Positions 38,774 through 55,445 of a stretch of 64,000 nucleotides of DNA are shown piece by piece (positions within the stretch are counted from its first letter, which is position 1; every line of letters starts with the position of its first letter). Below the pieces are notes generated by a model. The model worked only from the letters and a program-made list of their open reading frames with translations, had not been told where the DNA came from and searched no databases. Source of the stretch: Escherichia coli (GTDB taxonomy: Bacteria; Pseudomonadota; Gammaproteobacteria; Enterobacterales; Enterobacteriaceae); the NCBI RefSeq assembly GCF_044324785.1, contig NZ_CP172127.1; one strand, 5' to 3'. The position numbers and the translations under genes were made by a program.

Positions 38774-38788
38774 TTACCTTAAAGGTAT
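38774..38788. promoter_or_regulatory. TTACC-N5-GGTAA-type palindrome, one mismatch (TTACCttaaaGGTAT), upstream of int
   Basis: Read directly. Nested inside an 8-bp inverted repeat gacggtat (38767-38774) / ataccgtc (38795-38802). Confidence 0.45.
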
Positions 38789-38830
38789 ACTCTCATACCG
38801 TCATGAAAATGGTTTCTATACGGGTGAATT

Positions 38831-40081
38831 GTGCTTACCGATACAAAATTAAAAAACCTCAAGCCGCAGGACAAACTGTACAAGGTCTCCGATCGTGACG
38901 GGCTGTATGTAGCTGTGCTTACGTCAGGCACGGTCTCGTTTCGCTATGACTACCGTATCAACGGTCGCCGCGAAACACTGGTAATTGGGCAGTATGGGCG
39001 TGACGGTATCAGCCTGGCAGAAGCGCGAGAAGAACTGATTGCTGCAAAGAAGCTGCTTAAAGCAGGCCAGTCACCGGCTGCGGCTAAACGTGACGGTATT
39101 AAAAAGATTCGTGGTGCCGAGACGTTTGCGGTACATACCGACAGTTATATGAAACACGTCATCCTGGCTGACAGTACCCGCGCAATGAAGCAGGCGGTGA
39201 TCGACCGTGACATACTTCCGGTTCTTGGCAACAAAATGATGGCTGAAATTACCACATCAATGGTTCGTGATTTGTGTGACCGGATTGTCGAACGCGGTGG
39301 TCGGGCAACAGCAGTACAGGCCAGGGAGATCATCAGCAGCGTATACCGTCACGCCAATGACCGTGGTCATGGTTTGTTTAATCCTGCGGCTGACATTAAA
39401 CCTTCGTCTATCGCCATATTTAAACCACGAGAGCGAACACTGACACCAGAAGAAATTGGCCTGTTCTTCCGCACGCTGGATGCCATTGGTGCTATGGGCA
39501 CTATGAAAATGGCTTTAAAGCTGGTGCTTATCACCATGGTTCGTAAGGGAGAATTCACCAATGCAACGTGGGATGAAATAGATTTTAAAAAATGGACATG
39601 GACAATTCCTTCAGACCGCATGAAGGGAAGTCGGGCGCACGTTATTTACCTGCCTAAACAGGCACAGGATATATTAGTCGGGTTGCAGATGTGCGCTGGT
39701 GGAAGTGAATATCTGGTTCCTGGTCGTTACAATTTCCGGAAGCCATTATCTAATGCCGCGCTGAACTCTCTGATCGACAGAACGGTGAAAATAATAAATG
39801 AAGATGGTGAGCATATTCAGGACTTCACTGTACATGATATGCGCCGTACAGCCAGTACGTTGTTGCATGAGGCTGGTTATCCTTCAGACTGGATTGAAAA
39901 GGCTCTGGCACATGAGCAGAAAGGTGTGCGCGCCGTATATAACAAAGCGGAATACGCCAGACAGCGCGCCTACATGTTGCAGCAGTGGGCCGATATGATT
40001 GATTCCTGGATTAACGGGGAGCATACAGATCTGATTCCGTTCTCCCCGTCGAAGTTTGAGAAGTGGATAGCGGGGGAATAA
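38831..40081 (+). CDS. int: Tyrosine integrase, P4-type (DUF4102 arm-binding N-terminus)
   Basis: 416 aa, GTG start, MLTDTKLKNLKPQDKLYKVSDRDGLYVAV...; C-terminal HDMRRT...ALAHE...Y catalytic signature. Confidence 0.9.
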   Translation: MLTDTKLKNLKPQDKLYKVSDRDGLYVAVLTSGTVSFRYDYRINGRRETLVIGQYGRDGISLAEAREELIAAKKLLKAGQSPAAAKRDGIKKIRGAETFAVHTDSYMKHVILADSTRAMKQAVIDRDILPVLGNKMMAEITTSMVRDLCDRIVERGGRATAVQAREIISSVYRHANDRGHGLFNPAADIKPSSIAIFKPRERTLTPEEIGLFFRTLDAIGAMGTMKMALKLVLITMVRKGEFTNATWDEIDFKKWTWTIPSDRMKGSRAHVIYLPKQAQDILVGLQMCAGGSEYLVPGRYNFRKPLSNAALNSLIDRTVKIINEDGEHIQDFTVHDMRRTASTLLHEAGYPSDWIEKALAHEQKGVRAVYNKAEYARQRAYMLQQWADMIDSWINGEHTDLIPFSPSKFEKWIAGE

Positions 40082-40114
40082 TTTTGCCCGACACATCCCT
40101 GTGCCGCCGTTCTG

Positions 40115-40765
40115 TCAGAAGAACCCTGCCTTGTCGTTGATGTACTCCGCGTGAGTCTGGATATCACGCAGGCATTTGCTCACACCGACGATGTAGCAGA
40201 ACATGGTGGTCAGCTCCGCCGCCGCGCCCGATACGTCGTGCCCGTCGTCCTGTAACTGGTTCAGCAGATTCATCAGCAGTGAGTGCTCCGTCAGGCCGAG
40301 AACACCAGACGGCGAGTGAATCAGGCTGCGGTAGCCGGGCTTCAGTGGGGCACTGTATTCTTTTTTGTCTTCCAGCTTGATCGCCTCCATAATGGCGGGC
40401 ATGAAGCCTGACAAGACCTTCTCCACTTTTGTTTCTTGTTGTCTTAAACGTTTCTCGCATTCAATGAAGTAGCGTCGTACCTGACGACCTTTTTCATTAC
40501 GCTCGACCATCGCCAGCTCTTTGGCTGTATCGAGGGTGAGGTGGTAGTCTTTTGCAGGACGGCCTCTGCCTATTTTTTCCCGAACTTGGGAAATAATCAT
40601 AAAGTCTTGATTTTCAACGAAACCATATTCAGCAATTCGTTCGACAATCCACGAAGCAAATCGCTTACCCACATCGAGGAAAGTGTGTAAATCACGGGCA
40701 TTAACGAGAAGAGCGGTTTCGTTGGATAGAGTGCCGTTGAATACGGGGATGAGTTGACTGGTCAT
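40115..40765 (-). CDS. AntA-domain phage antirepressor-like protein
   Basis: 216 aa; the N-terminus LVNARDLHTFLDVGKRFASWIVERIAEYGFVENQDFMI is typical of AntA/AntB antirepressors; strong SD caggagg. Confidence 0.7.
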   Translation of the reverse strand: MTSQLIPVFNGTLSNETALLVNARDLHTFLDVGKRFASWIVERIAEYGFVENQDFMIISQVREKIGRGRPAKDYHLTLDTAKELAMVERNEKGRQVRRYFIECEKRLRQQETKVEKVLSGFMPAIMEAIKLEDKKEYSAPLKPGYRSLIHSPSGVLGLTEHSLLMNLLNQLQDDGHDVSGAAAELTTMFCYIVGVSKCLRDIQTHAEYINDKAGFF

Positions 40766-40937
40766 GATGACCTCCTGTTTGTTTTTAGTTACGAAAACCA
40801 GTTAGTAGCTGGTGATCGGGTGTCAACTAGAGCACAAACAGTAGCTCCGGGCATATTCCCCTTTCGGGTGTTGTATTACGCCTCTCCACCCGACCTTTGT
40901 ACGGATGTGACTATGCCAGATTGCAGGCATAAAAAAG

Positions 40938-40958
40938 CCGCAAAGCTATCGGGTGCGG
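40938..40958 (-). terminator. Weak intrinsic terminator candidate in the ant leader
   Basis: Minus strand ccgca-N11-tgcgg followed by cttttttat (T-run = plus 40931-40936). Only a 5-bp stem. Confidence 0.3.
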
Positions 40959-41089
40959 ATGACCGCTGTTTGTTTTCTAGTGCGGTCAGTATGCGATAGC
41001 TCTGGCGGCATTGTCAAATCATGCGCCATTGAGTCCAGCAATCTCTGCAATACCAATAGCGAGATAATCGCGATTCGTCAGGCGTGATT

Positions 41090-41338
41090 TTATTGCATAT
41101 GTCTTAGCTCCACTGAAGTTTTGATTTTATATGGGTTGCCTTTTACCTCAATAACACGATGAGGATCATTTTTTAGTTCTTCCGCAATCTTCCGTAATTT
41201 TCTAACAGCTGAACTGCGGTGTTTATAACGGTAAGTTACAGTTTCTTTTCTGTGCAATACCTCATCATTGTGGAACTTAGTCAAAACCATGACGACTTCA
41301 AACCTGACGCCGTTGTGTGCAACCATAATCTGCTTCAT
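41090..41338 (-). CDS. Hypothetical 82-aa protein, translationally coupled to the methylase
   Basis: ATG at 41338 overlaps the methylase TGA (ATGA). MKQIMVAHNGVRFEVVMVLTKFHNDEV... The longer 122-aa track ORF would overlap the methylase. Confidence 0.55.
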   Translation of the reverse strand: MKQIMVAHNGVRFEVVMVLTKFHNDEVLHRKETVTYRYKHRSSAVRKLRKIAEELKNDPHRVIEVKGNPYKIKTSVELRHMQ

Positions 41339-41985
41339 GCTGCACGCTCCCGTCCCTGGTTGTCTGTTGGTGACAGCGGAGCATTGCTGAATGCATTTGT
41401 TAATCCGCCAATATCCAACGCGTATCCGGGGTGTAGTTGCACTGCCGGGTCTTCGCACTGATTACCCCAAACATCGAAGCCATGAGACGTCTGGCGGGCG
41501 AACAGTTCAATGCGAGAAACATCGCCTAACAATTGCACAAGTTTTTCACGAACGACATCTGGTTTTCTTGAATGCTCAAGCCGCGGTGCGGTAAATGACT
41601 GAACGATCCCTGCATTAATGCGCGGAGGTAGTTTTCCCTTAACTGCAAACAGGCAATCTTCACTATTGGCGCGAGTCATGTGTCCCATACCCATAACCAG
41701 TTTATCTGGTTGTCGACTACCACATTTTATCCACGTGAAGCCCTTCATGGTCATCAGACGGAACCCCCAGGCTTCAACAACTTTTAGTGCTTCGAGTGGT
41801 TGTGTTGGCACCCACCACATGGCCAACAGACAGTTTTCATCGGCCAAATCCCACACAGGAAGGCGGCAGATATCCATCACACTCATAACCGGATATTTAA
41901 AACCGGCACCGCGATTACCATCTGCGGCTTTGTCCCGGTATACCCAGGGTGGATCTGCATAGATTAGTGTGTATTTCTTAGTCAT
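41335..41985 (-). CDS. MT-A70-family N6-adenine DNA methyltransferase (orphan)
   Basis: 216 aa with catalytic DPPW (LIYADPPWVY). No adjacent restriction endonuclease gene. Confidence 0.85.
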   Translation of the reverse strand: MTKKYTLIYADPPWVYRDKAADGNRGAGFKYPVMSVMDICRLPVWDLADENCLLAMWWVPTQPLEALKVVEAWGFRLMTMKGFTWIKCGSRQPDKLVMGMGHMTRANSEDCLFAVKGKLPPRINAGIVQSFTAPRLEHSRKPDVVREKLVQLLGDVSRIELFARQTSHGFDVWGNQCEDPAVQLHPGYALDIGGLTNAFSNAPLSPTDNQGRERAA

Positions 41986-42277
41986 AAACCACCCCGCAAC
42001 ATCCTATACCGCTATAGTCTCCACGGCGAAGGCCGTTACCTTTTGTGATACATTGGTCCCTGCGAACCGCGATCCTTGCACGCTCAACATCACCAGAAGC
42101 AACATCCATACACTGAAGCCAAAGGTGAGCGGCAATGCGGAACTGCCCTTTTTTCTCTCTTTCAATCGCGCGTTTTTCGATCTCTATCGCCGCAGGAGTA
42201 ACGGCGACAATCTTTGACGGACTGCGCATTGAAACCTTATTCATGTGATATTTTTCAAGTCGGCTTAACTTTCTCAC
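41978..42277 (-). CDS. Small regulator-like protein (ANR/PerC-like by eye)
   Basis: 99 aa; the segment EREKKGQFRIAAHLWLQCMDVASGDVERARIAVRRDQC resembles PerC/ANR-family helices. Overlaps the methylase start by 8 nt. Confidence 0.4.
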   Translation of the reverse strand: MRKLSRLEKYHMNKVSMRSPSKIVAVTPAAIEIEKRAIEREKKGQFRIAAHLWLQCMDVASGDVERARIAVRRDQCITKGNGLRRGDYSGIGCCGVVYD

Positions 42278-42361
42278 TTAATCCAACCCTCTCTGAAAAT
42301 TAATGCCAGCAGATAAAGCCATGCTGAAACAGAGGCCAGGAATAAGTACCATCCTGACCAT
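42278..42361 (-). CDS. 27-aa hydrophobic peptide candidate
   Basis: Hand translation MVRMVLIPGLCFSMALSAGINFQRGLD. Its TAA abuts the GTG of the next gene. Weak SD. Below the track cutoff. Confidence 0.3.
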   Translation of the reverse strand: MVRMVLIPGLCFSMALSAGINFQRGLD

Positions 42362-42386
42362 TTGATCCAGTGCCTTAGCAGCGCAC

Positions 42387-42635
42387 TCATGCAGCGTTGC
42401 TCACGGGACGATATACACGTTGCTGAACAGGAGGTTTTTTACCCTGGAACTCTGCCGGGCTTGCTGCCTGACGTTCATCAAGCCAACGCTCAACTTCATC
42501 ACGGTTCCATGCGCAGCGTTTATCGGTGATATACCAGCGTTTAGGAAATTCCCCTGCGCGCTCCATACGGTCGATAGTGCTCCATGACAGTGGCACCACC
42601 GCCAGGAGTTCTTTCTTACCTAATGCACCTTTCAT
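42387..42635 (-). CDS. AlpA-family regulator / excisionase-like protein
   Basis: 82 aa; LLAVVPLSWSTIDRMERAGEFPKRWYITDKRCAWNRDEVERWL is the AlpA/Xis winged-helix pattern. Confidence 0.8.
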   Translation of the reverse strand: MKGALGKKELLAVVPLSWSTIDRMERAGEFPKRWYITDKRCAWNRDEVERWLDERQAASPAEFQGKKPPVQQRVYRPVSNAA

Positions 42636-42654
42636 GAATACCTCTCTTGGTTGC

Positions 42655-42673
42655 AGTGCGGCGCACGTGGCGC
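42655..42673. other. GC-rich stem-loop between recT-like and alpA-like genes
   Basis: gcggcgc-acgtg-gcgccgc, 7-bp GC stem, no T-run. Confidence 0.4.
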
Positions 42674-42684
42674 CGCGGTGGTGG

Positions 42685-43566
42685 TTACATAGATGTTTCG
42701 TTTAATTCTTCCCGACGAACGCTGTAAACGTCGGTTGCTTTTGCCAGCAGTTCGTCATCATCTGAAAGTTTTTGTGCAATGTATTTGTAAGCCTTATCCA
42801 GTTCGGAGACAGTGCTGTAATTCATCGCTGCGCTGGTAAAGGCCATCAGCATTTCTTCTGGATCACGGCTATCCTCTTTACGCGTTTGCTCATCAGGCTT
42901 TTTCATTGGTTTAGCGTTGATCAGACTGTTCATTCCCGCAGCAGTAGTTGTTTGCGGAGTAATGTCTCGTTCAACGCGCGGTGCCGTTTCCTGTAATTCG
43001 TCAGGGGTGTAAACACCGAGAAGTACATCAGGAGCGTGCAGGCGAGCCCATCGTTTCGTGCAAAGATAGGCAAGCTGCTGGCGCGGATCCTGTTCCCACA
43101 ATGGAGAGTTACGCACTCCGGCTTGCGCCATACTGATGGTAAGCTCACGTGGTTCTGCTTCTCCTTTAAGAACTGCTGACACAGTTACCGTCAGATTCGG
43201 TGATTTATCTGTTTTGCCGTTAACATTCGACCAGTCACCGCTCCAGCGATAATTCAGGCGTGTCGCCAGCAGGCTGGAAGAGGATACGACCGCGTTTACC
43301 AACTGTGCTTCGTAGCCTAACGTTCCGTTTACCACATGCGTTTTCTGCGCCACGGCGAAAGGGTTCATTCCCCACTGTGCCGCCTGCATGGTCACCGCCA
43401 GGCAATCGGCAGGTTTGCCTTCAAGATGTTTCGGTACAGTCGCTTTGCTTTGTGACATCAACTCAGCGAAACGCACCAGTTGATTCATGCCCTCGGGGCT
43501 GAAGATTGCCGCAGCAGTGCCTACAGTTGCGCCTGGTTGTGATGTGATTGCGATATCATTGCTCAT
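42685..43566 (-). CDS. recT: RecT-family single-strand annealing protein
   Basis: 293 aa; QLVRFAELMSQSKATVPKHLEGKPADCLAVTMQAAQWGMNPFAVAQKTHVVNG is RecT-like; coupled to the upstream exonuclease gene. Confidence 0.85.
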   Translation of the reverse strand: MSNDIAITSQPGATVGTAAAIFSPEGMNQLVRFAELMSQSKATVPKHLEGKPADCLAVTMQAAQWGMNPFAVAQKTHVVNGTLGYEAQLVNAVVSSSSLLATRLNYRWSGDWSNVNGKTDKSPNLTVTVSAVLKGEAEPRELTISMAQAGVRNSPLWEQDPRQQLAYLCTKRWARLHAPDVLLGVYTPDELQETAPRVERDITPQTTTAAGMNSLINAKPMKKPDEQTRKEDSRDPEEMLMAFTSAAMNYSTVSELDKAYKYIAQKLSDDDELLAKATDVYSVRREELNETSM

Positions 43567-44384
43567 ACGTACATATCCTGTTTACGTGCCCAGTCAGGGC
43601 GTTTAATAATTTCCACTCCGCCCCACTCATCGTTGATGCGGCATTCGTGATAGGTATTCAGATCCCGGCGGAACAGAGCGTGCCCGGCATCGACATCCGG
43701 CGCATCCAGCTCGAACACGCGTACCGGATACCGACCACAATCAATGCTTTCGCTCACGGCAAGAAAGAAAAAACCATGCGGCTGACCAGTAACCCTCATT
43801 GCGCCTTCGCGGTACATTGCGTCCTGCACGTGGTAGCGGAATTCCTCGATGTGACGTGCAAAACGGTCCATATCTGCAACCTTTTTCACGTCGATGATCA
43901 CGTTGTGCTCGTTCAGCCATTTGTCTGGACGAATTCGGCACAACTCACCCGTCTCTTCATCGTTCCAGTACATTGACGCTTCGCAGTAACCAGGTGCTTC
44001 CAACATCCAGCGTGCCGCCGGGTGAGCCATTGCGCTATCACGCATCAGCTCCAGTTTCCGCCACTGCTCTTCATCAAGTACCGAAATACCCATATCCGCC
44101 ACATCACGAAGAAATGCCTCTTCGTCAGCTTTACCTTGTTTCGTCCGACGATCGAATTTCGGTGAAACAATGAAGCGTTTGTCGAACTCTCCAGGCTCCA
44201 GAAGCAGACAGTGCAATGCGGTTCCCATATCCAGTGCAGACTTTTTCTCTTCGTCTTCTGGTGCTGCCTGAATCCATTTAAGAAGCGCCGGATTCTTGGC
44301 AACCATGTCCAGTTGCGACTTACTCACGCCGTCACCGGCGTGGTAGTCTTCGTTGCTGATGTCGAAATAAATTCCCGGTTTCAT
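43563..44384 (-). CDS. RecE-type (PD-(D/E)XK, DUF3799-like) exonuclease
   Basis: 273 aa, MKPGIYFDISNEDYHAGDGVSKSQL...; 4-nt overlap with the recT-like start. Confidence 0.75.
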   Translation of the reverse strand: MKPGIYFDISNEDYHAGDGVSKSQLDMVAKNPALLKWIQAAPEDEEKKSALDMGTALHCLLLEPGEFDKRFIVSPKFDRRTKQGKADEEAFLRDVADMGISVLDEEQWRKLELMRDSAMAHPAARWMLEAPGYCEASMYWNDEETGELCRIRPDKWLNEHNVIIDVKKVADMDRFARHIEEFRYHVQDAMYREGAMRVTGQPHGFFFLAVSESIDCGRYPVRVFELDAPDVDAGHALFRRDLNTYHECRINDEWGGVEIIKRPDWARKQDMYV

Positions 44385-44680: not shown

Positions 44681-44682
44681 TA

Positions 44683-44835
44683 TCAGCCCTCCCATATCTC
44701 GTTATCGTTGGCCACATCGCGAGCTTCTTTGCTGACGAAAGCCCACTTAATGCCTTCCTGTAAGGTGCGGAACTTCCAGCTCATGAATCCGCATGCAGTA
44801 ACGCAGTACCAACCGTTGATGATTTTCCACTGCAT
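44683..44835 (-). CDS. Hypothetical 50-aa Trp-rich protein, first gene of the early-left operon
   Basis: Hand translation MQWKIINGWYCVTACGFMSWKFRTLQEGIKWAFVSKEARDVANDNEIWEG; SD gaggt 8 nt upstream. Not in the ORF track (<60 aa). Confidence 0.5.
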   Translation of the reverse strand: MQWKIINGWYCVTACGFMSWKFRTLQEGIKWAFVSKEARDVANDNEIWEG

Positions 44836-44854
44836 AACTTGTTACCTCGGTCTG

Positions 44855-44869
44855 TTACCGTTGAGGTAA
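44855..44869. promoter_or_regulatory. Operator-like palindrome TTACCgttgaGGTAA (perfect), OL-proximal
   Basis: Read directly; immediately downstream of the early-left promoter -10. Confidence 0.6.
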
Positions 44870-44897
44870 TAATTATGCGTATATGGTTTGATGTCAA
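44869..44897 (-). promoter_or_regulatory. Early-left promoter candidate
   Basis: Minus strand TTGACA (44897-44892), 17 nt, AATTAT (44874-44869). Flanked by two palindromes. Confidence 0.45.
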
Positions 44898-44916
44898 TAG
44901 ATATGAGTTAAAAAAA

Positions 44917-44931
44917 TTACCCGTTAGGTAA
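44917..44931. promoter_or_regulatory. Operator-like palindrome TTACCcgttaGGTAA (perfect), OL-distal
   Basis: Read directly; upstream of the -35 of the early-left promoter. Confidence 0.6.
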
Positions 44932-44942
44932 TCGAATAGGCA

Positions 44943-44968
44943 ATAAAAAAGCCGCCATAAGGCGGCTT
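44943..44968 (-). terminator. Intrinsic terminator after the repressor gene
   Basis: Minus strand aagccgcc-ttat-ggcggctt followed by tttttatt. Confidence 0.7.
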
Positions 44969-44988
44969 ACTTACTGAAAAATATGATT

Positions 44989-45573
44989 TTATTGTTTGTT
45001 TTTTTCGTTCTGGTTGATGACAAATTCAATGTAACTTTCGATCTTTGCTTTCTCGGTTTCGGGTAACAAAGCGTAGCGCGAGCGGTCATAGTTGATAGTC
45101 GCAGGGTCGTGCGGGTGAATCAGTAATTCATAGCCGTGACGCCCGAATGCGGATGCAACATTCTCCAGGGTGGAAATGGAAACGCTGACCTCATTGTTTA
45201 ACAGGCGGCTGATTGTCACCTGGGCGACGCCGGATGCGCGGTGAAGTTTTCCCTGCGTTGAAAGGTCGCGGCTTTCGCTCATCCAGCGTTCCAGGTTGTG
45301 AGCCGCCAGTTGACCAATGTCGCTTGGTCCGACAGGCTGAAAACCTTCCTGAGAAAGCGAGCGATCGATATCAAGCCAGTTACGGGGTTTATTGGCGGCA
45401 GCTTCAATTTTTCGCGCAACCTGGTCGCCGATAACCTTCTTGCCAAGAGCCCAGCGGTTTACCAGATTTGCCTGAGTTCCAAGTTTTTCAGCCATCCGCG
45501 TCTGAACACCATTGAATTCACGGTCGATCAAGTCGTTGAGATTTTGCCTGCGGACGTCCTGGATACTTTTCAT
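44989..45573 (-). CDS. Prophage repressor candidate with two HTH segments and no S24 peptidase domain
   Basis: 194 aa. HTH-like stretches GVQTRMAEKLGTQANLVNRWALGK and STQGKLHRASGVAQVTISRLLNNE. Divergent from the cro-like gene across the palindrome pair. Confidence 0.7.
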   Translation of the reverse strand: MKSIQDVRRQNLNDLIDREFNGVQTRMAEKLGTQANLVNRWALGKKVIGDQVARKIEAAANKPRNWLDIDRSLSQEGFQPVGPSDIGQLAAHNLERWMSESRDLSTQGKLHRASGVAQVTISRLLNNEVSVSISTLENVASAFGRHGYELLIHPHDPATINYDRSRYALLPETEKAKIESYIEFVINQNEKNKQ

Positions 45574-45627
45574 TTTCTGGAAAATCGCCTCATATCTGAA
45601 TCAGAAGATGATTCAATTTAAAGCAAT

Positions 45628-45642
45628 ATTACCCAACAGGTA
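45628..45642. promoter_or_regulatory. Operator-like palindrome TTACCcaacaGGTAA (perfect), OR region
   Basis: Read directly; between the divergent repressor and cro-like genes. Confidence 0.6.
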
Positions 45643-45666
45643 AATGCACCTCATGGGTAACTATCC

Positions 45667-45695
45667 TTGATTTTTGTTACCTTATAGGTGAATAT
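45667..45695 (+). promoter_or_regulatory. Early-right promoter candidate
   Basis: TTGATT (45667-45672), 17 nt, GAATAT (45690-45695). The spacer contains the palindrome at 45677-45691. Confidence 0.45.
45677..45691. promoter_or_regulatory. Operator-like palindrome, one mismatch (TTACCttataGGTGA), OR region
   Basis: Read directly; lies in the spacer of the early-right promoter. Confidence 0.5.
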
Positions 45696-45727
45696 TTATT
45701 ATCTGAAATAAATATCAGGCAATAGCT

Positions 45728-45958
45728 ATGAGCGATAACGGACATTTCGATTTCAAAAAGCACTGGCTTGCACTTACTCCGGATGAGCGTGAAGCCTTCG
45801 CACAGGAAGCCGGAACGACGAGTCACTATATCCAGACTCACTTAACAGGTAAGCGCAAAATGCCAGGTAAGGTATTGATGGATGGGCTTTTTAAAGCCTG
45901 TAAATCAAGACAATGGCTGCGCTCAAAAGCAGAACTGGCATACTTCTTCTACTCATGA
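45728..45958 (+). CDS. Cro-like small DNA-binding protein
   Basis: 76 aa; first rightward gene opposite the repressor; possible HTH EAFAQEAGTTSHYIQTHLTGKRK. Confidence 0.55.
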   Translation: MSDNGHFDFKKHWLALTPDEREAFAQEAGTTSHYIQTHLTGKRKMPGKVLMDGLFKACKSRQWLRSKAELAYFFYS

Positions 45959-45979
45959 TATCCAGCCACAACCCTCTGT

Positions 45980-46003
45980 AGACCGCCATCCGGCGGTCTT
46001 TTC
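45980..46003 (+). terminator. Intrinsic terminator directly after the cro-like gene
   Basis: agaccgcc-atcc-ggcggtct followed by tttt. Confidence 0.65.
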
Positions 46004-46013
46004 ATATCTATTC

Positions 46014-46028
46014 GTACCTCAAAGGTAA
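46014..46028. promoter_or_regulatory. Operator-like palindrome, one mismatch (GTACCtcaaaGGTAA)
   Basis: Read directly; 10 nt after the terminator, followed by TAAAAAA. Confidence 0.45.
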
Positions 46029-46108
46029 TAAAAAACCAAATATGGTTGATCTTTTTTTTGTGTCAGCACAAAATAACCGTAATCCCAATACTAATAACAG
46101 GGCTTACC

Positions 46109-47927: not shown

Positions 47928-47948
47928 GCGCGATAGCGCATTTTTTTA
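47928..47948 (+). terminator. Weak terminator after the P-like gene
   Basis: gcgc-gata-gcgc followed by attttttt. Only a 4-bp stem. Confidence 0.3.
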
Positions 47949-47959: not shown

Positions 47960-47974
47960 TTACCTTAGAGGTAA
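47960..47974. promoter_or_regulatory. Operator-like palindrome TTACCttagaGGTAA (perfect)
   Basis: Read directly; intergenic between the P-like and DUF1064 genes. Confidence 0.55.
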
Positions 47975-47993: not shown

Positions 47994-48022
47994 TTGATTT
48001 CGTGTCTTATGTGGTTTTTAAT
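47994..48022 (+). promoter_or_regulatory. Promoter candidate for the accessory (DUF1064...) module
   Basis: TTGATT (47994-47999), 17 nt, TTTAAT (48017-48022). The -10 overlaps the next palindrome. Confidence 0.4.
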
Positions 48023-48036
48023 TACCTAAGGGGTAA
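48022..48036. promoter_or_regulatory. Operator-like palindrome TTACCtaaggGGTAA (perfect)
   Basis: Read directly; ends 3 nt before ATG 48040 and contains its SD. Confidence 0.55.
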
Positions 48037-48039: not shown

Positions 48040-48387
48040 ATGAGAAAACAGATGCAGGCTCTTGGTCGACTCAAAACAGGCCAGATGAACAAAACAGAAT
48101 CTGCGTATTGCCAGCACCTTGAGCTGCGTAAACGTGCAGGAGAAATCGTCTGGTATCGATTTGAGGGTATCAAGCTGCGGTTAGCTGACAACACGTTCTA
48201 TACGCCAGATTTTGCTGTGATGCTCGCCACCGGCGAGATGGAACTGCACGAAGTGAAAGGGGGATTCTGGACCGATGACGCCAGAGTGAAAACCAAAGTC
48301 GCCGCAGATCAGTATCCGTTCCGAATCATCGGGGTAACGGTTAAGCCAAAGAAAGCAGGTGGTGGCTGGAACATCGAAGAGTTCTGA
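48040..48387 (+). CDS. DUF1064-family (PD-(D/E)XK-like) phage protein
   Basis: 115 aa; NKTESAYCQHLELRKRAGEIVWYRFEGIKLRLADNTFYTPDFAV...ELHEVKG pattern. Confidence 0.65.
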   Translation: MRKQMQALGRLKTGQMNKTESAYCQHLELRKRAGEIVWYRFEGIKLRLADNTFYTPDFAVMLATGEMELHEVKGGFWTDDARVKTKVAADQYPFRIIGVTVKPKKAGGGWNIEEF

Positions 48388-49296: not shown

Positions 49297-49297
49297 T

Positions 49298-49984: not shown

Positions 49985-49985
49985 G

Positions 49986-50177: not shown

Positions 50178-50179
50178 CT

Positions 50180-50620: not shown

Positions 50621-50823
50621 ACGATATGGCAACCAACAATCGTAAAGCCAAGATGCTAATTTCCCGTGTATACAGACTTTGCTACCCCAGCCAGTGGTTG
50701 AGAGTTAGCAATCGCCGTGTGGTGTTGTTCTCATTTTCTGGAATTGCCAGAGAGGGAATCAAAGATAAGCGCAGCGCGGCGCAAAACCGCTGGAAAAACA
50801 ACTTGCGCACTAAAGGAGCCTAA
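50617..50823 (+). CDS. Hypothetical basic 68-aa protein
   Basis: ATGA overlap with the previous gene; stop 1 nt before the next ATG. Fills the only gap, but composition is unusual. Confidence 0.4.
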   Translation: MNDMATNNRKAKMLISRVYRLCYPSQWLRVSNRRVVLFSFSGIAREGIKDKRSAAQNRWKNNLRTKGA

Positions 50824-50824
50824 T

Positions 50825-51034
50825 ATGGCTATTGCCGCAAGTTACACCATGCATCTCTACTGTGATTGTCGCCAGTGTACAAATGGTAAATATCAGTCGC
50901 CAGACTTCGGTGAGTATATCGGTACGTCATGGGCTGGCTGTGCAAAAGAAGCACGTAAAGATGGATGGCGAATAAGCGCCGACAAAACACGTGCTTTTGC
51001 GCCCGGACATAAAGTTTTGAGGATTAACAAATGA
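50825..51034 (+). CDS. Hypothetical Cys-rich 69-aa protein
   Basis: MAIAASYTMHLYCDCRQCTNGKYQSPDFGEY...; ATGA-type overlap with the next gene. Confidence 0.5.
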   Translation: MAIAASYTMHLYCDCRQCTNGKYQSPDFGEYIGTSWAGCAKEARKDGWRISADKTRAFAPGHKVLRINK

Positions 51035-51594
51035 CAACATTTACCGACGACGACAAGAAACTAATTAAAGAAATCAGGGAGCGAATCGGCAGCCTGGACG
51101 TGCGAGACAATATTGAGCGCCGGGCTTATGAAATTTCTCTGGCATCACTGGGAGCAGAACCTGTAAGCCAAACTTACAACTTGCCAGAATTAATCGAAGG
51201 CATGGAGGTTTCCATTGATGTAAGCACTTGTGATGCGGATTTAGGTAATCGCTATTTCGGTACCGTCACCGAGGCGTTAGAACTTGATACTGCCAAGAAT
51301 GGTTACATCCTCCTGGTTCAGGACGCAGAGCCAAACTTCGATGTAAATGGCAACTCTCCGGTAACTCCGGATGGTTGGATAAGCTGTAGTGAGCTAATGC
51401 CGGAAAAGAACCAGAACGTGCTTATTTCGGTGAATTTCGATAGCTCTCTGGTTGAACCGCTAATATGCTCCGCACGCTATACAGGAAGCACATTCCGGCG
51501 AGGAGAAGCAACGATTAAGCCGGGCAATGGTATTGAGCAAGCAACTCACTGGATGCCGCTACCGGAACCACCGCAGGAGGTTAACCGTGGCTAA
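51031..51594 (+). CDS. DUF551-type phage protein
   Basis: 187 aa; C-terminal DGWISCSELMPEKNQNVLI...ATHWMPLPEPP is the DUF551 pattern. Confidence 0.65.
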   Translation: MTTFTDDDKKLIKEIRERIGSLDVRDNIERRAYEISLASLGAEPVSQTYNLPELIEGMEVSIDVSTCDADLGNRYFGTVTEALELDTAKNGYILLVQDAEPNFDVNGNSPVTPDGWISCSELMPEKNQNVLISVNFDSSLVEPLICSARYTGSTFRRGEATIKPGNGIEQATHWMPLPEPPQEVNRG

Positions 51595-51868
51595 CCTGCA
51601 ACTTGCCGTCAAAGGTGAATACTTCGATGCCATGATTCGCGGAGAGAAAACGGAAGAGTATCGCCTGTGTAATGACTACTGGAATAAGCGAATCATGTTC
51701 CGGGAATATGACCGCCTGATTATCACAAAGGGATATCCGAAGCGCGACGACTTCAGTCGCAGAATTGACGTCCCGTATGACGGATATGAAATCAAGACAA
51801 TCACACATCCGCACTTCGGTGATAAACCGGTAAAGGTGTTCGCGATAAAGGTAAATATTGATGGCTAA
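51587..51868 (+). CDS. ASCH-domain protein
   Basis: GTG 51587 behind SD aggagg; VKGEYFDAMIRGEKTEEYRL...ITKGYP resembles ASCH domains. Confidence 0.65.
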   Translation: MANLQLAVKGEYFDAMIRGEKTEEYRLCNDYWNKRIMFREYDRLIITKGYPKRDDFSRRIDVPYDGYEIKTITHPHFGDKPVKVFAIKVNIDG

Positions 51869-52199
51869 ATCAGCAGCAGAGCGCAAAGCCGCTCAGAGAG
51901 CCAGACAAGCTGCATCTGGTGTGCGTAAGCTGGAGATTGTGCTTGATGCTCAGGAAATTGAAATGCTGGAGCGTAACTGTGCCACGCGTCGCCCCGGGCG
52001 TGCGCCTTACGAATTTGGTGAGTATATAGCGTTACTGATCCGCCAGGATGATGCACGCGTGCACGGGCGTATAAAATCGATCAGCAGAAAACGTTGCGGT
52101 AAGTGCGGCGAGAGAGTTCCTGTAAATTCATGCCCGTGTAATGGTGACTCGCAATGCTGGGTGACTAAAGGCTGGCATGAAACGAAATTAATAGTGTGA
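51858..52199 (+). CDS. Ribbon-helix-helix-like N-terminus plus Cys-rich C-terminus; last gene before the late operon
   Basis: 113 aa; RKLEIVLDAQEIEMLERN (RHH-like) and CGKCGERVPVNSCPCNGDSQC. Confidence 0.5.
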   Translation: MMAKSAAERKAAQRARQAASGVRKLEIVLDAQEIEMLERNCATRRPGRAPYEFGEYIALLIRQDDARVHGRIKSISRKRCGKCGERVPVNSCPCNGDSQCWVTKGWHETKLIV

Positions 52200-52207
52200 C
52201 ATGTCAC
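52196..52207. promoter_or_regulatory. 12-bp perfect palindrome GTGACATGTCAC, copy 1
   Basis: Overlaps the stop codon of ORF 51858-52199. A 14-nt identity (tgtgacatgtcacg) is shared with the copy at 54470-54483. Confidence 0.4.
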
Positions 52208-52248
52208 GAGTAGATTATGCATGATGAATTTGATGGGTTTTGAATACT

Positions 52249-52274
52249 GCCGCCAACTATGGCGGCTTTATTTT
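52249..52274 (+). terminator. Intrinsic terminator upstream of the terminase operon
   Basis: gccgcc-aactat-ggcggc followed by tttatttt. Confidence 0.6.
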
Positions 52275-52285
52275 GCATGGTACTA

Positions 52286-52300
52286 TTACCACAACGGTAA
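52286..52300. promoter_or_regulatory. Operator-like palindrome TTACCacaacGGTAA (perfect)
   Basis: Read directly; 18 nt upstream of the terS start. Confidence 0.55.
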
Positions 52301-52303
52301 CTA

Positions 52304-52318
52304 TTACCACGGTGGTTA
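52304..52318. promoter_or_regulatory. Operator-like palindrome, one mismatch (TTACCacggtGGTTA)
   Basis: Read directly; its last base is the A of the terS ATG. Confidence 0.45.
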
Positions 52319-52914
52319 TGATGCCTGCTGAACCTAAAACCTATAAACGCAAATCAACGCAATTTAAGCCGCTCACAGCAATGCAGGAGGCTTATTGCCA
52401 GTCATACATCAAAACGCCTGAAAACCAGACTCAGGCAGCGATTAACGCAGGATTCTCCCCAAATACAGCGGCAGTTAAAGCCAGTGTCATGATGCGCGAT
52501 GAACGCATTCAAAAACGGATTGCCGAGTTGATGGAGGAGCGCAACAAACGAATGCGCGTCAGTGCTGATTACGTTCTCATGCGCTTGGTGGAGATCGACC
52601 AGATGGACGTGATCGATATCCTCAACGACGATGGGAGCCTTAAACCAATCCGTGAGTGGCCGAAAATCTGGCGCACTACGCTTAGTGGCTTTGATCTGTC
52701 ATCGACCATCATGAACATGAACGAGGATTCGATAGAGACAATCCTCAAAAAAATTAAATGGCCTGACAAGGTGAAGAACCTAGAACTGATTGGTAAGCAC
52801 GTCGACGTCAACGCATTCAAAGAACGCCTGGATGTTAATGTGAATGTGACAATTGCTGATCGCATAGCGGCAGCCAGGAAACGACTCAAAGAACGTCAGG
52901 ATGGTAATCAGTGA
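52318..52914 (+). CDS. terS: Terminase small subunit
   Basis: Start at ATG 52318 (MMPAEPKTYKRK). KPLTAMQEAYCQSYIKTPENQTQAAINAGFSPNTAAVKAS is the Terminase_2-type HTH. Overlaps terL by 4 nt. Confidence 0.8.
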   Translation: MMPAEPKTYKRKSTQFKPLTAMQEAYCQSYIKTPENQTQAAINAGFSPNTAAVKASVMMRDERIQKRIAELMEERNKRMRVSADYVLMRLVEIDQMDVIDILNDDGSLKPIREWPKIWRTTLSGFDLSSTIMNMNEDSIETILKKIKWPDKVKNLELIGKHVDVNAFKERLDVNVNVTIADRIAAARKRLKERQDGNQ

Positions 52915-54386
52915 CAGATGCAGCGTTATCTCCTGAAGAGCAGTTGATCGAGGATATTGCAGGGTTCACTCACGATCCGCTTGGCTATGCCCTCTATGCG
53001 TTCCCGTGGGGGGAAGAGGGGACTGAACTGGCACATGCCACCGGTCCACGTCAGTGGCAGGCTGATGCGTTCCGAGAGATACGTGATCACCTGCAGAATC
53101 CAGAGACGCGCTATCAGCCGCTTATGCTGGCACGCGCTTCTGGTCACGGTATTGGTAAATCCGCATTCATCTCAATGCTGATCAACTGGGGCATGTCCAC
53201 TTGCGAGGATTGTAAGGTCGTGGTGACCGCCAACACCGACAACCAGCTACGAACGAAGACCTGGCCGGAAATTATCAAGTGGTCGAACCTTGCTATCACG
53301 AAAGACTGGTTTACCTGTACCGCTACCGCGATGTACAGCAATGATCCTGGACACGACAAGCGGTGGCGAGCTGACGCAATCCCCTGGTCTGAGCACAACA
53401 CTGAGGCATTCGCCGGACTACACAACGAGCGCAAACGCATCATCGTGGTATTCGATGAAGCGTCGAACATTGCGGATCTGGTGTGGGAGGTAGCAGAGGG
53501 TGCGCTGACGGACGAAGACACCGAAATCATCTGGGTGGCGTTCGGGAACCCGACGCGTAATACCGGACGTTTCCGCGAATGTTTCCGCAAATATAAACAC
53601 CGCTGGAAAACTGCGCAGATTGACAGCCGGACGGTGGAAGGCACTAACAAACAGCAGTTGCAGAAATGGGTTGATGACTACGGGGAAGACAGCGACTTCG
53701 TTAAAATCCGTGTGCGTGGCATATTCCCTGATGCATCTGAATTGCAGTTTATCCCTACCGGTCTTACTGACGAGGCAATGAAACGGGTGGTAACCGCTGC
53801 GCAGGTTGCACATGCTCCGGTGATAATCGGCGTTGACCCGGCATACTCCGGCGTTGATGACGCTGTGATATACCTGCGGCAGGGGCTGCACAGTAAGGTG
53901 CTATGGACTGGTAACAAGACCACCGACGATCTGATTATGGCGAAGCGTATCGCTGACTTTGAAGACCAGTATCAGGCTGACGCAGTGTTCATCGACTTTG
54001 GTTACGGTACCGGTCTGAAGTCAATCGGTGACGGCTGGGGTCGTACATGGCAACTTGTTCCGTTCGGCGGTGCGTCTACTGACCCGCAGATGCTCAATAA
54101 GCGCGGGGAGATGTTCAATGCATGCAAGACATGGCTGAGGCTGGGCGGCATGCTGGATGACCAGGAAACAGCGGACGACCTGTCGGCGGCAGAGTACAAA
54201 GTTCGAGTGGACGGTAAAATCGTTATCGAACCGAAGGAAGATATCAAAGAGCGGCTTGGGCGTTCTCCTGGTAAAGGCGATGCGCTACTGCTGACGTTTG
54301 CGTTCCCTGTGTCGAAGCGTCTGCGAATTCCCGGGCAGCAGAACCAGCAAGGCAAGGCCATCACAGATTACGATCCCTATGCTTAA
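52911..54386 (+). CDS. terL: Terminase large subunit
   Basis: 491 aa; Walker A ARASGHGIGKSAF; Walker B-like IIVVFDEAS; position after terS. Confidence 0.9.
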   Translation: MTDAALSPEEQLIEDIAGFTHDPLGYALYAFPWGEEGTELAHATGPRQWQADAFREIRDHLQNPETRYQPLMLARASGHGIGKSAFISMLINWGMSTCEDCKVVVTANTDNQLRTKTWPEIIKWSNLAITKDWFTCTATAMYSNDPGHDKRWRADAIPWSEHNTEAFAGLHNERKRIIVVFDEASNIADLVWEVAEGALTDEDTEIIWVAFGNPTRNTGRFRECFRKYKHRWKTAQIDSRTVEGTNKQQLQKWVDDYGEDSDFVKIRVRGIFPDASELQFIPTGLTDEAMKRVVTAAQVAHAPVIIGVDPAYSGVDDAVIYLRQGLHSKVLWTGNKTTDDLIMAKRIADFEDQYQADAVFIDFGYGTGLKSIGDGWGRTWQLVPFGGASTDPQMLNKRGEMFNACKTWLRLGGMLDDQETADDLSAAEYKVRVDGKIVIEPKEDIKERLGRSPGKGDALLLTFAFPVSKRLRIPGQQNQQGKAITDYDPYA

Positions 54387-54431
54387 TCCTCTGGTGGGGA
54401 TAATGTCGTTGATATCCTCTGGTGAGGATAA
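54386..54431. repeat. Two 18-nt direct repeats ATCCTCTGGTG(G/A)GGATAA, each a small hairpin
   Basis: Copies at 54386-54403 and 54414-54431 (17/18 identical). The second folds as tatcctc-tggt-gaggata. Confidence 0.6.
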
Positions 54432-54436
54432 AACAA

Positions 54437-54456
54437 AGCCAGCTCATAGGCTGGCT
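54437..54456. terminator. Bidirectional terminator between terL (+) and the gp49-like gene (-)
   Basis: agccagc-tcatag-gctggct; T-rich on the minus side (ttgtttt), gttt on the plus side. Confidence 0.6.
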
Positions 54457-54470
54457 GTTTGTGACATGTC

Positions 54471-54482
54471 ACGGTGTTATTG
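54471..54482. promoter_or_regulatory. 12-bp perfect palindrome GTGACATGTCAC, copy 2
   Basis: Identical to 52196-52207; overlaps the stop of the gp49-like gene. Confidence 0.4.
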
Positions 54483-54833
54483 CTCGCTTAACTTCTGCTT
54501 CAGCAAGTAACCTTCAAGCATCCAGATTTTGTTTACAGCATTCTGCCGGGCAATCTTCCGACCAATTTCTGCATCAAAGTTTTCCGGGCTTGCACAGGCA
54601 CTCTCTCCGGTAACGGTGAAGCCATTCTTCAGTACCAATACGCAGAAAGTCAGGAGGTCTGTAGATTTATGCGCTACCCATGAATCGCCAACGCCCATAT
54701 TGGCAGCACGAATGCCGTCATAAGCAGTAAAGAAATGCTCTTCAAGAATGATGCTTTCGATATATTGAGGCGTAACTCGCGGAGCGGTTTTGCCTTTCTC
54801 AACGATTTCTTTTTCGATTTGCTGGTCGTTCAT
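54477..54833 (-). CDS. N4 gp49 / Sf6 gp66-family phage protein
   Basis: 118 aa; LTFCVLVLKNGFTVTGESACASPENFDAEIGRKIARQNAVNKIW matches my memory of that family. Opposite strand to the flanking late genes. Confidence 0.65.
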   Translation of the reverse strand: MNDQQIEKEIVEKGKTAPRVTPQYIESIILEEHFFTAYDGIRAANMGVGDSWVAHKSTDLLTFCVLVLKNGFTVTGESACASPENFDAEIGRKIARQNAVNKIWMLEGYLLKQKLSEQ

Positions 54834-54844
54834 AATCTCACCTT

Positions 54845-54868
54845 AAAAAAATGCCCGGCGAACCGGGC
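54845..54868 (-). terminator. Intrinsic terminator abutting the gp49-like RBS
   Basis: Minus strand gcccgg-ttcg-ccgggc + attttttt, then AAGGTGAG-att-ATG. Confidence 0.6.
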
Positions 54869-54944
54869 GAACTGGAAGCAATGAGTTATGCCTTCCGTGG
54901 CTGTACTGGTTTACAGCATGAAGTCATCGCAATGGCGTCGTGCT

Positions 54945-54988
54945 GTAAAAAGGGCGGTGATAGTCCTTCAAGGGAAACCATCACCGCC
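54945..54988 (-). terminator. Intrinsic terminator downstream of the tRNA
   Basis: Minus strand ggcggtgat-N18-atcaccgcc followed by cttttta. Confidence 0.6.
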
Positions 54989-55031
54989 AAGCCCCTGGAA
55001 CTTCTGGCATCACGGTCCTTAGGCGTGATTC

Positions 55032-55108
55032 TGGCGTGGCATGCAGGATTCGAACCTGCGACCAACCGCTTAGAAGGCGGTTGCTCTGTCCGACTGAGCT
55101 AATGCCAC
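55032..55108 (-). tRNA. tRNA-Arg (anticodon UCU), phage-encoded, CCA encoded
   Basis: Hand-folded cloverleaf: GTGGCAT/ATGCCAC acceptor, GCTC/GAGC D stem, ACCGC-CTTCTAA-GCGGT anticodon arm, GCAGG-TTCGAAT-CCTGC T arm, G-CCA. Confidence 0.9.
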
Positions 55109-55430
55109 AACGCTGAGAGCACTTAGCCTGTTAAGGCGCCACACTTTGTCGCGGCTCCATAAATGCTCTCATCGTTGTACCCTCGTCTCTTCCGAGGCGT
55201 CACACCGAATCGCCGGGATGGTGAATCCCCGTGCGCGGAATAAAACCGCTCGACTTGCACATTCCGGCTACCTGGTTCGTTTGCCCGAGCAAGGGAGGGT
55301 GCCCCTTAAACGTATCCAGACCGCTATCGGCGCATGTGCCATACGCCGTACTGCTCAAAATAAAAGCTCACTCCACCTGTTTAATTTAACGACAAGCCAG
55401 TCAGGTTAGTAACCAGAATGAGCTCTTTAG
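55109..55430 (-). ncRNA. Unassigned ~320-nt GC-rich leader between promoter and tRNA (candidate structured RNA)
   Basis: No convincing ORF. Contains an 11-bp helix gagagcattta/taagtgctctc (55118-55128 / 55163-55173) and several local hairpins. Bounded by a sigma70-like promoter and the tRNA. Confidence 0.3.
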
Positions 55431-55445
55431 TTACCCGAAAGGTAA
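55431..55445. promoter_or_regulatory. Operator-like palindrome TTACCcgaaaGGTAA (perfect)
   Basis: Read directly; overlaps the -10 of the minus-strand tRNA-cassette promoter. Confidence 0.55.

Follow-up and report, generated by a model that had tools for sequence, protein, structure and literature searches.

Analysis of a 64,000-nucleotide stretch of the Escherichia coli contig NZ_CP172127.1 (assembly GCF_044324785.1), here called the window, revealed a 15-bp palindrome, TTACCNNNNNGGTAA (TTACC-N5-GGTAA), that recurs in the intergenic regions of a prophage. These palindromes are very probably the operators of the prophage repressor Rep, with the prophage being silenced by this one tetrameric repressor acting on many separate, terminator-insulated promoters. 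A preliminary description of the window had already taken the sites for a single family of protein-binding operators, which is supported by the analyses reported here. Dispersed repressor sites of this type are an already known kind of control, and the present case rediscovers, in a phiV10-type prophage, a family that had been annotated in Salmonella phage epsilon15.

The left 38.6 kb of the window is host chromosome and ends with guaA. The prophage is integrated at the 3' end of this gene and starts with the attL core attgagtgggaatgatt (38624-38640), an attachment core sequence taken from PMC9782041. Its sequence is about 97.6% identical to Escherichia phage phiV10, an epsilon15-like member of the genus Uetakevirus, and shows more distant matches to Salmonella phage epsilon15 and other Uetakevirus members. 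The window stops at position 64000 inside a tail gene, and the rest of the prophage lies beyond it. In the GenBank record of epsilon15 (AY150271.2), seven features are annotated as "protein_bind / repressor / lysogeny" with the sequence ATTACC-N5-GGTAAT. Three of them mark the left operator region (OL); the others precede the terminase small subunit gene terS, gp3 (which opens the head operon), the tailspike gene, and the RuvC module. This last module follows the replication genes and corresponds to the DUF1064 module in the window. Full-text literature searches for the motif or for Uetakevirus operators yielded nothing specific, with Kropinski et al. 2007 and Kim et al. 2016 outside their reach, and a paper on the repressor and antirepressor of ZX5 names no operators. 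Kropinski et al. 2007 is reportedly associated with the annotation of the epsilon15 repressor-binding sites. The Rep/Ant switch of the epsilon15-like phage SPC32H is said to be the subject of Kim and Ryu 2013 and Kim et al. 2016, with the structures PDB 5d50 and 5d4z.

An exact search for TTACCNNNNNGGTAA found seven perfect sites in the window, starting at positions 44855, 44917, 45629, 47960, 48022, 52286, and 55431. Dinucleotide shuffles gave a mean expectation of 0.08 perfect copies per window, and none of 100 shuffles reached seven. The preliminary description had the same count, with one site displaced by a single base (given as 45628-45642, correctly 45629-45643). It had also listed four one-mismatch copies in the prophage, which we recovered at 38774, 45677, 46014, and 52304; three further one-mismatch matches lie in the host part (11775, 28143, and 33228). 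Perfect and one-mismatch copies together amount to 14 in the window versus 1.11 expected. They are distributed as seven perfect and four near-perfect sites in 25.4 kb of prophage versus three near-perfect and no perfect sites in 38.6 kb of host DNA.

All 11 prophage sites are in non-coding DNA, as had been claimed, provided that terS starts at the ATG at 52321. We also scored placement with a deliberately generous mask in which every open reading frame (ORF) of at least 80 amino acids counted as coding and only 8.6% of the prophage stayed free. Even so, six of the seven perfect sites fell into ORF-free DNA (binomial P = 2.7e-6). Sites scored as lying in an ORF were within mechanical TTG-started extensions, e.g., 52240..52914, and since such extensions were counted as coding, this crude mask understates the intergenic enrichment. 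The sites are spread beyond the immunity region, with distal copies at the heads of separate, terminator-bounded transcription units. The original wording that they mark every module boundary is too strong; the terL/gp66-like junction, for example, has no site.

Comparison with related phages showed that the sites are kept in every relative examined. With this result and a host part free of perfect copies, none of the outcomes that the preliminary description had named as refuting turned up. The motif was found at orthologous positions in phiV10, Tyrion (Enterobacter), epsilon15, SPC32H, and BUCT711 (Klebsiella), and also in six prophages of Superficieibacter, Erwinia, Klebsiella, two Citrobacter species, and Scandinavium. 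When all palindromes with two 5-bp halves were counted without bias, TTACC with a gap of 5 ranked first in each of these six prophage loci. In total, 11 further phages and prophages, which come from seven host genera, share the motif, its positions, and a dominant pair spacing of 62 bp. Among 77 distinct perfect sites, variation is confined to the N5 spacer and the flanks and spares the half-sites; A or T occupies the centre in 98% of them and is also favoured in the flanks. The symmetrised consensus of these sites is wATTACC-nnWnn-GGTAATw. Neighbouring sites are 61 to 63 bp apart in 21 of 52 pairs and 17 to 18 bp apart in 13 of 52.

The variant half-sites are constant across genera at orthologous places, i.e., GGTAT near the integrase gene int, GGTGA at the right operator OR1, and GGTTA at the second terS site. 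The int-proximal GGTAT variant is present in all relatives, and in the Klebsiella phage its N5 differs while both half-sites are kept. The GGTGA variant of OR1 recurs in Tyrion, epsilon15, and SPC32H and in the Citrobacter, Scandinavium, Superficieibacter, and Erwinia prophages. An imperfect orthologue of the second terS site exists in Tyrion, epsilon15, and the Klebsiella, Citrobacter, and Scandinavium prophages. The site behind the cro-like gene is imperfect everywhere, with a variant that differs by lineage. We therefore do not regard the four one-mismatch copies as noise. Furthermore, at least 80 contigs in IMG/VR encode Rep at 100% identity, and all 80 returned carry three to eight perfect sites around rep. 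The occurrence of the same half-site in phages of seven host genera suggests a single, genus-wide immunity specificity.

The rep gene (44989..45573, minus strand) encodes the 194-amino-acid prophage repressor, which is 100% identical to p40 of phiV10 and homologous to SPC32H Rep over its full length (phmmer against PDB 5d50_A: E = 4e-42, residues 1-190 of 194). The homology spans all three domains, i.e., the N-terminal helix-turn-helix (HTH) DNA-binding domain, the middle HTH_3-like dimerisation domain, and the C-terminal domain for tetramerisation and antirepressor binding. A Pfam scan placed HTH_3 at residues 106-147 and a weak YdaS-type HTH at 21-61; it returned only HTH families and no Peptidase_S24 domain of the LexA/CI autocleavage type. 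For SPC32H Rep, two papers that discuss its structure describe three domains, of which the N-terminal one binds DNA, the middle one dimerises, and the C-terminal one serves both tetramerisation and binding of the antirepressor Ant (PMC9986798, PMC9638917). According to the same papers, palindromic DNA is bound by a Rep tetramer in which each DNA-binding pair spans two dimers, a single tetramer is enough for repression, and Ant disassembles it (PMC9638917, PMC9986798). Of the two phenylalanines of the SPC32H tetramer interface, whose roles are given in PMC9986798, F190 is conserved in the window Rep and F187 is replaced by tyrosine.

We compared the window Rep with the Rep proteins of phiV10, Tyrion, epsilon15, SPC32H, and BUCT711. 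Identity to the window protein goes down from 78% to 42% among the diverged types. The segment N36-L-V-N-R-W41 (NLVNRW) is invariant across five Rep types that share 42 to 78% identity, and relative to epsilon15 the DNA-binding domain is better conserved (54% identity) than the remainder (37%). A full-length Rep relative with altered specificity was found neither among six further genome-contig loci, all of which have the same motif, nor among the 80 viral contigs; the latter all match Rep at 100% identity and so add no diversity to a covariation test. In five loci in which the match is confined to the DNA-binding domain, i.e., distant homologues, the motif is absent. Sodalis phage phiSG1, the nearest phage with a related portal outside the Rep search results, was rejected as a comparator, being a degraded mosaic with no perfect motif copy. 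The 194-amino-acid protein had been named as one of two candidate binders, and it is the right candidate: it is the full-length homologue of SPC32H Rep, and the motif tracks it.

The second candidate had been a 113-amino-acid protein (51858..52199, plus strand), described as a ribbon-helix-helix/Zn (RHH/Zn) protein. This predicted regulator has a Cys-rich C terminus and matches phrog_536, "transcriptional regulator". A different phage protein could be the main binder, either this one or the cro-like 76-amino-acid protein acting as a lytic shut-off factor, with Rep acting at most at OL and OR. We consider this improbable, although both proteins have features in its favour. The cro-like protein has an HTH of the Rep type (27% identity to the Rep HTH over 41 amino acids) and belongs to phrog_35, "transcriptional repressor", and in lambdoid phages Cro and CI share operators. 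The gene for the 113-amino-acid protein ends about 90 bp before the terS sites. Homologues of the latter occur as gene 46 of phage N15 and in P2-like Yersinia phages, but N15 and the P2-like Yersinia phage, which carry other repressors, contain not one perfect motif site, which speaks against this protein as the binder. No Pfam family and no PDB sequence match was found for it, a Foldseek search against PDB returned nothing below E = 4, and its AlphaFold models are poor (pLDDT 45 from the single sequence, 60 with 32 close homologues). The distal sites, moreover, do not differ in sequence class from the OL and OR sites on either side of rep, and the epsilon15 annotators assigned the sites to the repressor. 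Sharing of operators by the cro-like protein would supplement the assignment to Rep, not supplant it.

We next consider the Rep operators site by site. At the left side of rep, OL1 (44855..44869) is a perfect copy that covers the predicted transcription start of the leftward promoter PL and whose first base is the last base of the PL -10 element. OL2 (44917..44931), also perfect, is placed at a spacing of 62 bp from OL1, some 20 bp ahead of the PL -35 element. PL itself (44869..44897, minus strand) consists of TTGACA (44897..44892), a 17-nt spacer, and AATTAT (44874..44869), with 10 of 12 matches in a promoter scan. In an alignment of five genomes, the arrangement TTGACA-17-(A/G)ATTAT followed directly by TACC is kept. 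PL drives the leftward early operon, which includes recombination genes, an AlpA-like excisionase/regulator (42387-42635, minus strand; phrog_66), and a PerC-like predicted transcriptional activator (41978-42277, minus strand; phrog_868, 5.7e-62). An apparently gene-free stretch of the leftward early region also harbors a match to the Rfam family sRNA-Xcc1 (RF02221) at 40806-40895 on the minus strand (64.8 bits versus a gathering score of 53), downstream of a TTGACA-18-CATACT promoter-like site (41017..40988).

On the other side of rep, the perfect OR2 (45629..45643) is in the leader/promoter region of rep, and OR1 (45677..45691, TTACC-N5-GGTGA) is within the -35/spacer region of the rightward promoter PR. 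Two readings of PR are possible, namely TTGATT (45667-45672)-17-GAATAT (45690-45695), which is conserved in the alignment, or TTGTTA-17-TATTAT, which was proposed by the promoter scan. The earlier observation that the pairs around the repressor and cro-like genes overlap sigma-70-like hexamers was thus confirmed, with the PL -10 abutting the 44855 site and the PR -35/spacer overlapping the 45677 site. PR is followed by the cro-like gene (45728..45958, plus strand; phrog_35, 8.7e-13) as the first gene of the rightward operon. A weak operator (46014..46028, GTACC-N5-GGTAA) is located 15 bp past the cro terminator and upstream of a TTGATC-16/17-(C/A)AAAAT promoter-like element; an orthologous degenerate site and the element are kept in six genomes.

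The DUF1064 module is preceded by two perfect operators (47960..47974 and 48022..48036), again 62 bp apart. The first directly follows a weak terminator (47928-47947); the second starts on the last base of the -10 element TTTAAT (48017-48022) and, as had been noted, covers the Shine-Dalgarno sequence of the DUF1064 gene (ATG at 48040). The promoter between the operators, TTGAnn (47994-47999)-17-TTTAAT/TTAAAT/ATAAAT, is kept in five genomes. The gene behind this pair varies, being DUF1064 here and a RuvC-like resolvase in epsilon15 and Tyrion, and the operator pair is retained. Such a swap of the downstream gene, together with the coincidence of sites with mosaic joints, could mean that the palindromes are recombination linkers at module junctions that have no regulatory role. 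We judge this to be very unlikely, since a 15-bp microhomology needs no strict palindromy, no A/T centre, no 62-bp phasing, and no register with -10 elements, and exchanges of modules at conserved operators are more probably a side effect of regulation.

Ahead of terS, the first Rep operator (52286..52300, perfect) starts on the last base of the extended -10 element TGgTACTAT (52278-52286), which is kept as TGnTAyTAT in five of five genomes. Its epsilon15 orthologue (12-27) is annotated as "protein_bind repressor". The second operator (52304..52318, TTACC-N5-GGTTA) follows 18 bp from the first and, overlapping with the terS Shine-Dalgarno sequence, stops 2 nt short of the ATG, in agreement with the site formerly described as abutting this codon. 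The terS gene (52321..52914, plus strand, with the short start) encodes the terminase small subunit (Pfam Terminase_2, 1e-29). The start at 52321 is backed by the annotations of epsilon15, Tyrion, and SPC32H, by the Terminase_2 match from residue 18 onward, and by the terminator at 52249-52266. The phiV10 record (41-715) begins terS at an upstream TTG, which places this terminator and both Rep operators inside the coding sequence; this start is probably mis-annotated.

The most distal perfect operator (55431..55445) lies in a divergent region, between the leftward tRNA-Arg and gp66-like genes and the rightward head operon. Within this operator is the -10 element TACCTT (55444..55439) of a leftward promoter with the -35 element TTGACA (55467..55462). 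This promoter reads TTGAC(A/C)-17-TACCYT in an alignment of five genomes, in which it is conserved, and faces the tRNA-Arg gene. The claim that the site covers the -10 of a tRNA-cassette promoter was correct as to the -10; the cassette is a single tRNA-Arg(TCT) gene (55032-55108, minus strand; ARAGORN and Rfam). The epsilon15 orthologue of the site (2931-2947) is likewise annotated as "protein_bind repressor". The centre of the site lies about 79 bp upstream of the inferred start of the rightward head operon, and with a distance of about 80 bp a direct occlusion of this main structural promoter is unsupported. A second full operator 62 bp downstream of 55431 was considered and rejected, only the right half-site being present (GGTAAT, 55503-55508). 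The ~55 bp upstream of the first head-operon gene (55470-55530), AATAAATCATATGTGGTTAAATTGGTAATAATTTAATTGCGTACGGAG, are near-invariant in five genomes, with flanks that are only ~78% identical. Such conservation exceeds the need of a plain sigma-70 promoter.

The site near int (38774..38788, TTACC-N5-GGTAT) is a probable weak operator. It lies 43 bp upstream of the start of the tyrosine integrase gene (38831..40081, plus strand; Pfam Phage_integrase, Arm-DNA-bind_3, and Phage_int_M), in the attP arm region and within a larger inverted repeat. As the whole surrounding region is conserved, its assignment as an operator is the least certain of the set. The roles of this site and of the weak 46014 site are less clear than those of the other operators.

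Three of the junctions had been described as immediately preceded by an intrinsic terminator. This applies to the 46014 and 52286/52304 sites, which are preceded by the terminators 45980-45999 and 52249-52266. The structure before 47960/48022 is only a 4-bp GCGC stem followed by T7 and stays below the scan threshold, yet it is conserved in five genomes and annotated in phiV10. A position behind terminators, the RNase III sites that the epsilon15 record gives near some intergenic regions, and the longer inverted repeat around the int-proximal copy would also fit RNA-level hairpins at transcription-unit ends with a role in processing, stability, or termination. This is extremely improbable. The 15-mers form stems of just 4 to 5 bp with energies of -2.6 to -3.9 kcal/mol, it is the half-site sequence itself that is conserved, and no compensatory changes occur among the 77 distinct sites; on the stem energies and the absence of compensatory change we rejected this reading. 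In addition, several copies precede the inferred transcription start or lie between divergent promoters, an RNA role would give no reason for the 62-bp helical phasing, and Rfam finds nothing at the sites. A host transcription factor common to Enterobacterales and borrowed by the phage would explain an identical motif in phages of seven host genera, but we give it hardly any credence, as the 38.6 kb of host DNA hold no perfect copy, the sites are grouped around rep in the manner of OL and OR, the other temperate phages of the same hosts that were examined (N15 and the P2-like Yersinia phage) lack the motif, and we know of no host factor with this half-site orientation.

Assignment of the palindromes to Rep gains a mechanistic side from a recurring design, in which the last T of the -10 element is the first T of TTACC (PL, the DUF1064-module promoter, and the terS promoter). 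Operators in register with -10 and +1 elements support a repression of initiation. From the positions of these elements, direct repression appears sterically convincing at PL, PR, the DUF1064-module promoter, the terS promoter, and the leftward promoter facing the tRNA gene. The proposal that each unit is gated directly, including the late operon, can be maintained for these promoters and not for the rightward head operon.

In a lysogen, Rep would occupy about a dozen operators that coincide with or adjoin core elements of separate sigma-70 promoters, each of which would head a unit insulated from the previous one by a terminator. The Rep tetramer would offer two DNA-binding pairs, each reading one palindrome. 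At a pair spaced by 62 bp, i.e., about six helical turns, one tetramer could clamp both sites and trap the promoter in a small loop; the recurring spacing and the published architecture of the tetramer together suggest such a single-tetramer loop. Upon an SOS response, inactivation of LexA would lead to production of the small antirepressor Ant, which would dismantle the Rep tetramer so that all operators are vacated together. The sequences themselves show the sites with their enrichment and conservation, the promoter geometry, the homology of Rep, and its link to the motif; actual binding by Rep, looping, and the induction route are what we infer.

The route of induction is proposed by analogy to SPC32H, and phages of this type have been described to be induced via a LexA-controlled antirepressor instead of repressor cleavage (PMC7380047). 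The ant gene, which in this system would be expected upstream of the tailspike or tail-fibre gene, falls beyond the end of the window, and phiV10 served as a proxy (97.6% identical overall, 100% in Rep). In phiV10, ant (p24) has a perfect LexA box, CTGTATAAATACACAG, at 20824-20839 abutting the ant start, and a Rep operator is located 40 bp away at 20877. Five genomes share the order LexA box - CTATCCAGCA - operator - AWCCATATRTGGTT box - GGTAATAGAAT. The region around rep had been described as a normal OL/OR layout, which does not hold in the sense of a lambda-type switch: Rep lacks the S24 cleavage domain and is of the SPC32H type, whose tetramer is inactivated by a LexA-controlled antirepressor.

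By its sequence, the immunity of the prophage belongs to the Rep-Ant system of epsilon15 and SPC32H. Both share the operator ATTACC-N5-GGTAAT, the orthologous positions at terS, the head-operon region, OL, and the DUF1064/RuvC pair, a Rep with full-length homology and without an S24 domain, and, as seen in phiV10, an ant gene with a LexA box. Differences exist as well. The window Rep is only ~42% identical overall and 54% in the DNA-binding domain, OL has two sites here versus three there, the OR spacing is 48 bp here versus 17 and 30 bp, and the post-cro site is better preserved in the window prophage. In addition, the epsilon15 record leaves unannotated the OR, int, lysis-cassette, and second DUF/RuvC sites found here.

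Similarities to other systems are more limited. As in lambda, operators flank the repressor gene at divergent PL and PR, but in contrast to CI there would be no RecA-stimulated self-cleavage, and no N/Q cascade is recognisable by family scans. C1 of phage P1 resembles Rep in logic only, as one repressor with many dispersed operators and direct control without a cascade. The P1 operators are asymmetric 17-bp sites for monomeric C1, which is modulated by Coi and Bof; the window sites are palindromic and fit a tetrameric HTH protein to which C1 is unrelated. The stoperators of mycobacteriophage L5, bound by gp71, are likewise repressor sites scattered in short intergenic gaps for genome-wide silencing in the lysogen. 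They comprise about 30 asymmetric, orientation-dependent sites that block elongating polymerase, whereas the window sites are symmetric, A/T-centred, and overlap -35, -10, or +1 elements, which points to control of initiation. Paired operators phased on one face of the helix are also known from the short loops of LacI/GalR proteins, and the loop proposed here, at 62 bp, would be shorter than the classic examples.

Several points weigh against the assignment of all sites to Rep. The link between Rep and the motif consists, as far as the sequences tell, of co-occurrence and position without a compensatory change in protein and site, and the 113-amino-acid, cro-like, and PerC-like proteins also co-occur with the motif within the genus. 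The cro-like protein, being of the same HTH class, may share the sites. Those at 55431, 46014, and 38774 occlude no strong rightward promoter, and the repressor-site features in epsilon15 may themselves be predictions. Furthermore, a 62-bp loop would be very tight, and the idea of looping has the spacing as its sole basis.

In line with the preliminary description, Pfam and PHROGs scans of the early genes found no N or Q homologue. The position of Q, just upstream of the late operon, is occupied by the 113-amino-acid phrog_536 protein, which has low-confidence models and neither a PDB sequence match nor a fold match. Between its gene and terS, a GTGACA-18-CATGAT promoter-like site (52196-52225) is followed by a terminator. 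The PerC-like or the AlpA-like protein could be a second-tier regulator of late promoters, and the PerC-like activator and the 113-amino-acid regulator could together supply such a tier. The view that one protein gates everything can be upheld insofar as there is one operator family, but two further conserved palindromes, the PerC-like activator, and the phrog_536 protein argue against it as a whole.

One of these palindromes, GTGACATGTCAC, has three hits in the window versus 0.17 expected (52196-52207, 54461-54472, and a one-mismatch copy at 57485). It was also found at positions 2262 and 19493 of phiV10 and at 2142, 19517, and 39612 of epsilon15. In the Uetakevirus genomes checked that cover these positions, it is present at as many as three conserved operon ends, where it separates a stop codon from a terminator. 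The first of these is between the stop codon of the 113-amino-acid regulator gene and the terminator ahead of terS, the second next to a bidirectional terminator in the gap from terL to the gp66-like gene, and the third at the end of the long structural operon, immediately before its terminator. GTGACATGTCAC is unannotated in epsilon15 and absent from N15 and the Yersinia phage that carry homologues of the 113-amino-acid protein. Possibilities are a protein site that modulates termination or the -35 element of a short promoter-plus-terminator unit (GTGACA-18-CATGAT, 52196-52225).

The other palindrome is a box of the form A(A/T)(C/T)CATAT(A/G)TGGTT, here called the AWCCATATRTGGTT box, which occurs in perfect form as AACCATATATGGTT at the phiV10 lysis-cassette promoter. 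It is found at 46034-46047, 48007-48016, 55484-55497, and 44881-44890 of the window and at 20918, 24736, and 33132 of phiV10. It follows Rep operators at a distance of a few to about 40 bp and is within or next to promoter spacers. Placements include the PL spacer, the -35 region of the post-cro promoter, and the spacer of the DUF1064-module promoter; at the head, tail-fibre, and lysis promoters the box lies 7 bp upstream of TAATAA, TAATAG, or TATAAT. Its enrichment is modest (nine hits versus about 1.5 expected in phiV10), and its positions are conserved in four to six genomes. The box could be the site of a second regulator, e.g., the cro-like, the PerC-like, or the phrog_536 protein. The two palindromes together suggest additional regulators.

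The dispersed operators add little as a discovery, given the existing epsilon15 annotation and the solved structures of the repressor family. New ground seems to be left in three respects, namely the strict pairing at 62 bp, an operator that stays invariant throughout the genus although Rep has diverged deeply, and the two further conserved palindromes. Half-site TTACC and the segment NLVNRW are identical in phages of Escherichia, Salmonella, Klebsiella, Enterobacter, Citrobacter, Erwinia, and Superficieibacter despite a Rep identity of ~42%. A tentative joint reading, which we think is rather doubtful as a whole, would be that operator specificity is frozen genus-wide, that Uetakeviruses form one cross-immune and cross-inducible group unlike the lambdoid phages, that 62-bp pairs are clamped by single tetramers into unusually small promoter loops, and that AWCCATATRTGGTT and GTGACATGTCAC are further layers of the same regulatory code. 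If the specificity were indeed frozen, a single cross-immune group would follow, since a change of immunity would need a coordinated change at a dozen or more dispersed operators.

The immunity region (44830-46030, comprising rep, the cro-like gene, and the operators) is present at an identity of at least 95% in 540 of 5,426 complete E. coli genomes, which makes this prophage type a common resident of the species. Relatives of phiV10 serve as O157 typing and reporter phages, and the compact set of promoters that Rep would control is available for engineering. For the biology of the phage, one antirepressor-sensitive tetramer that shuts a dozen promoters would account for the simultaneous release of all early and packaging units without an N/Q cascade.

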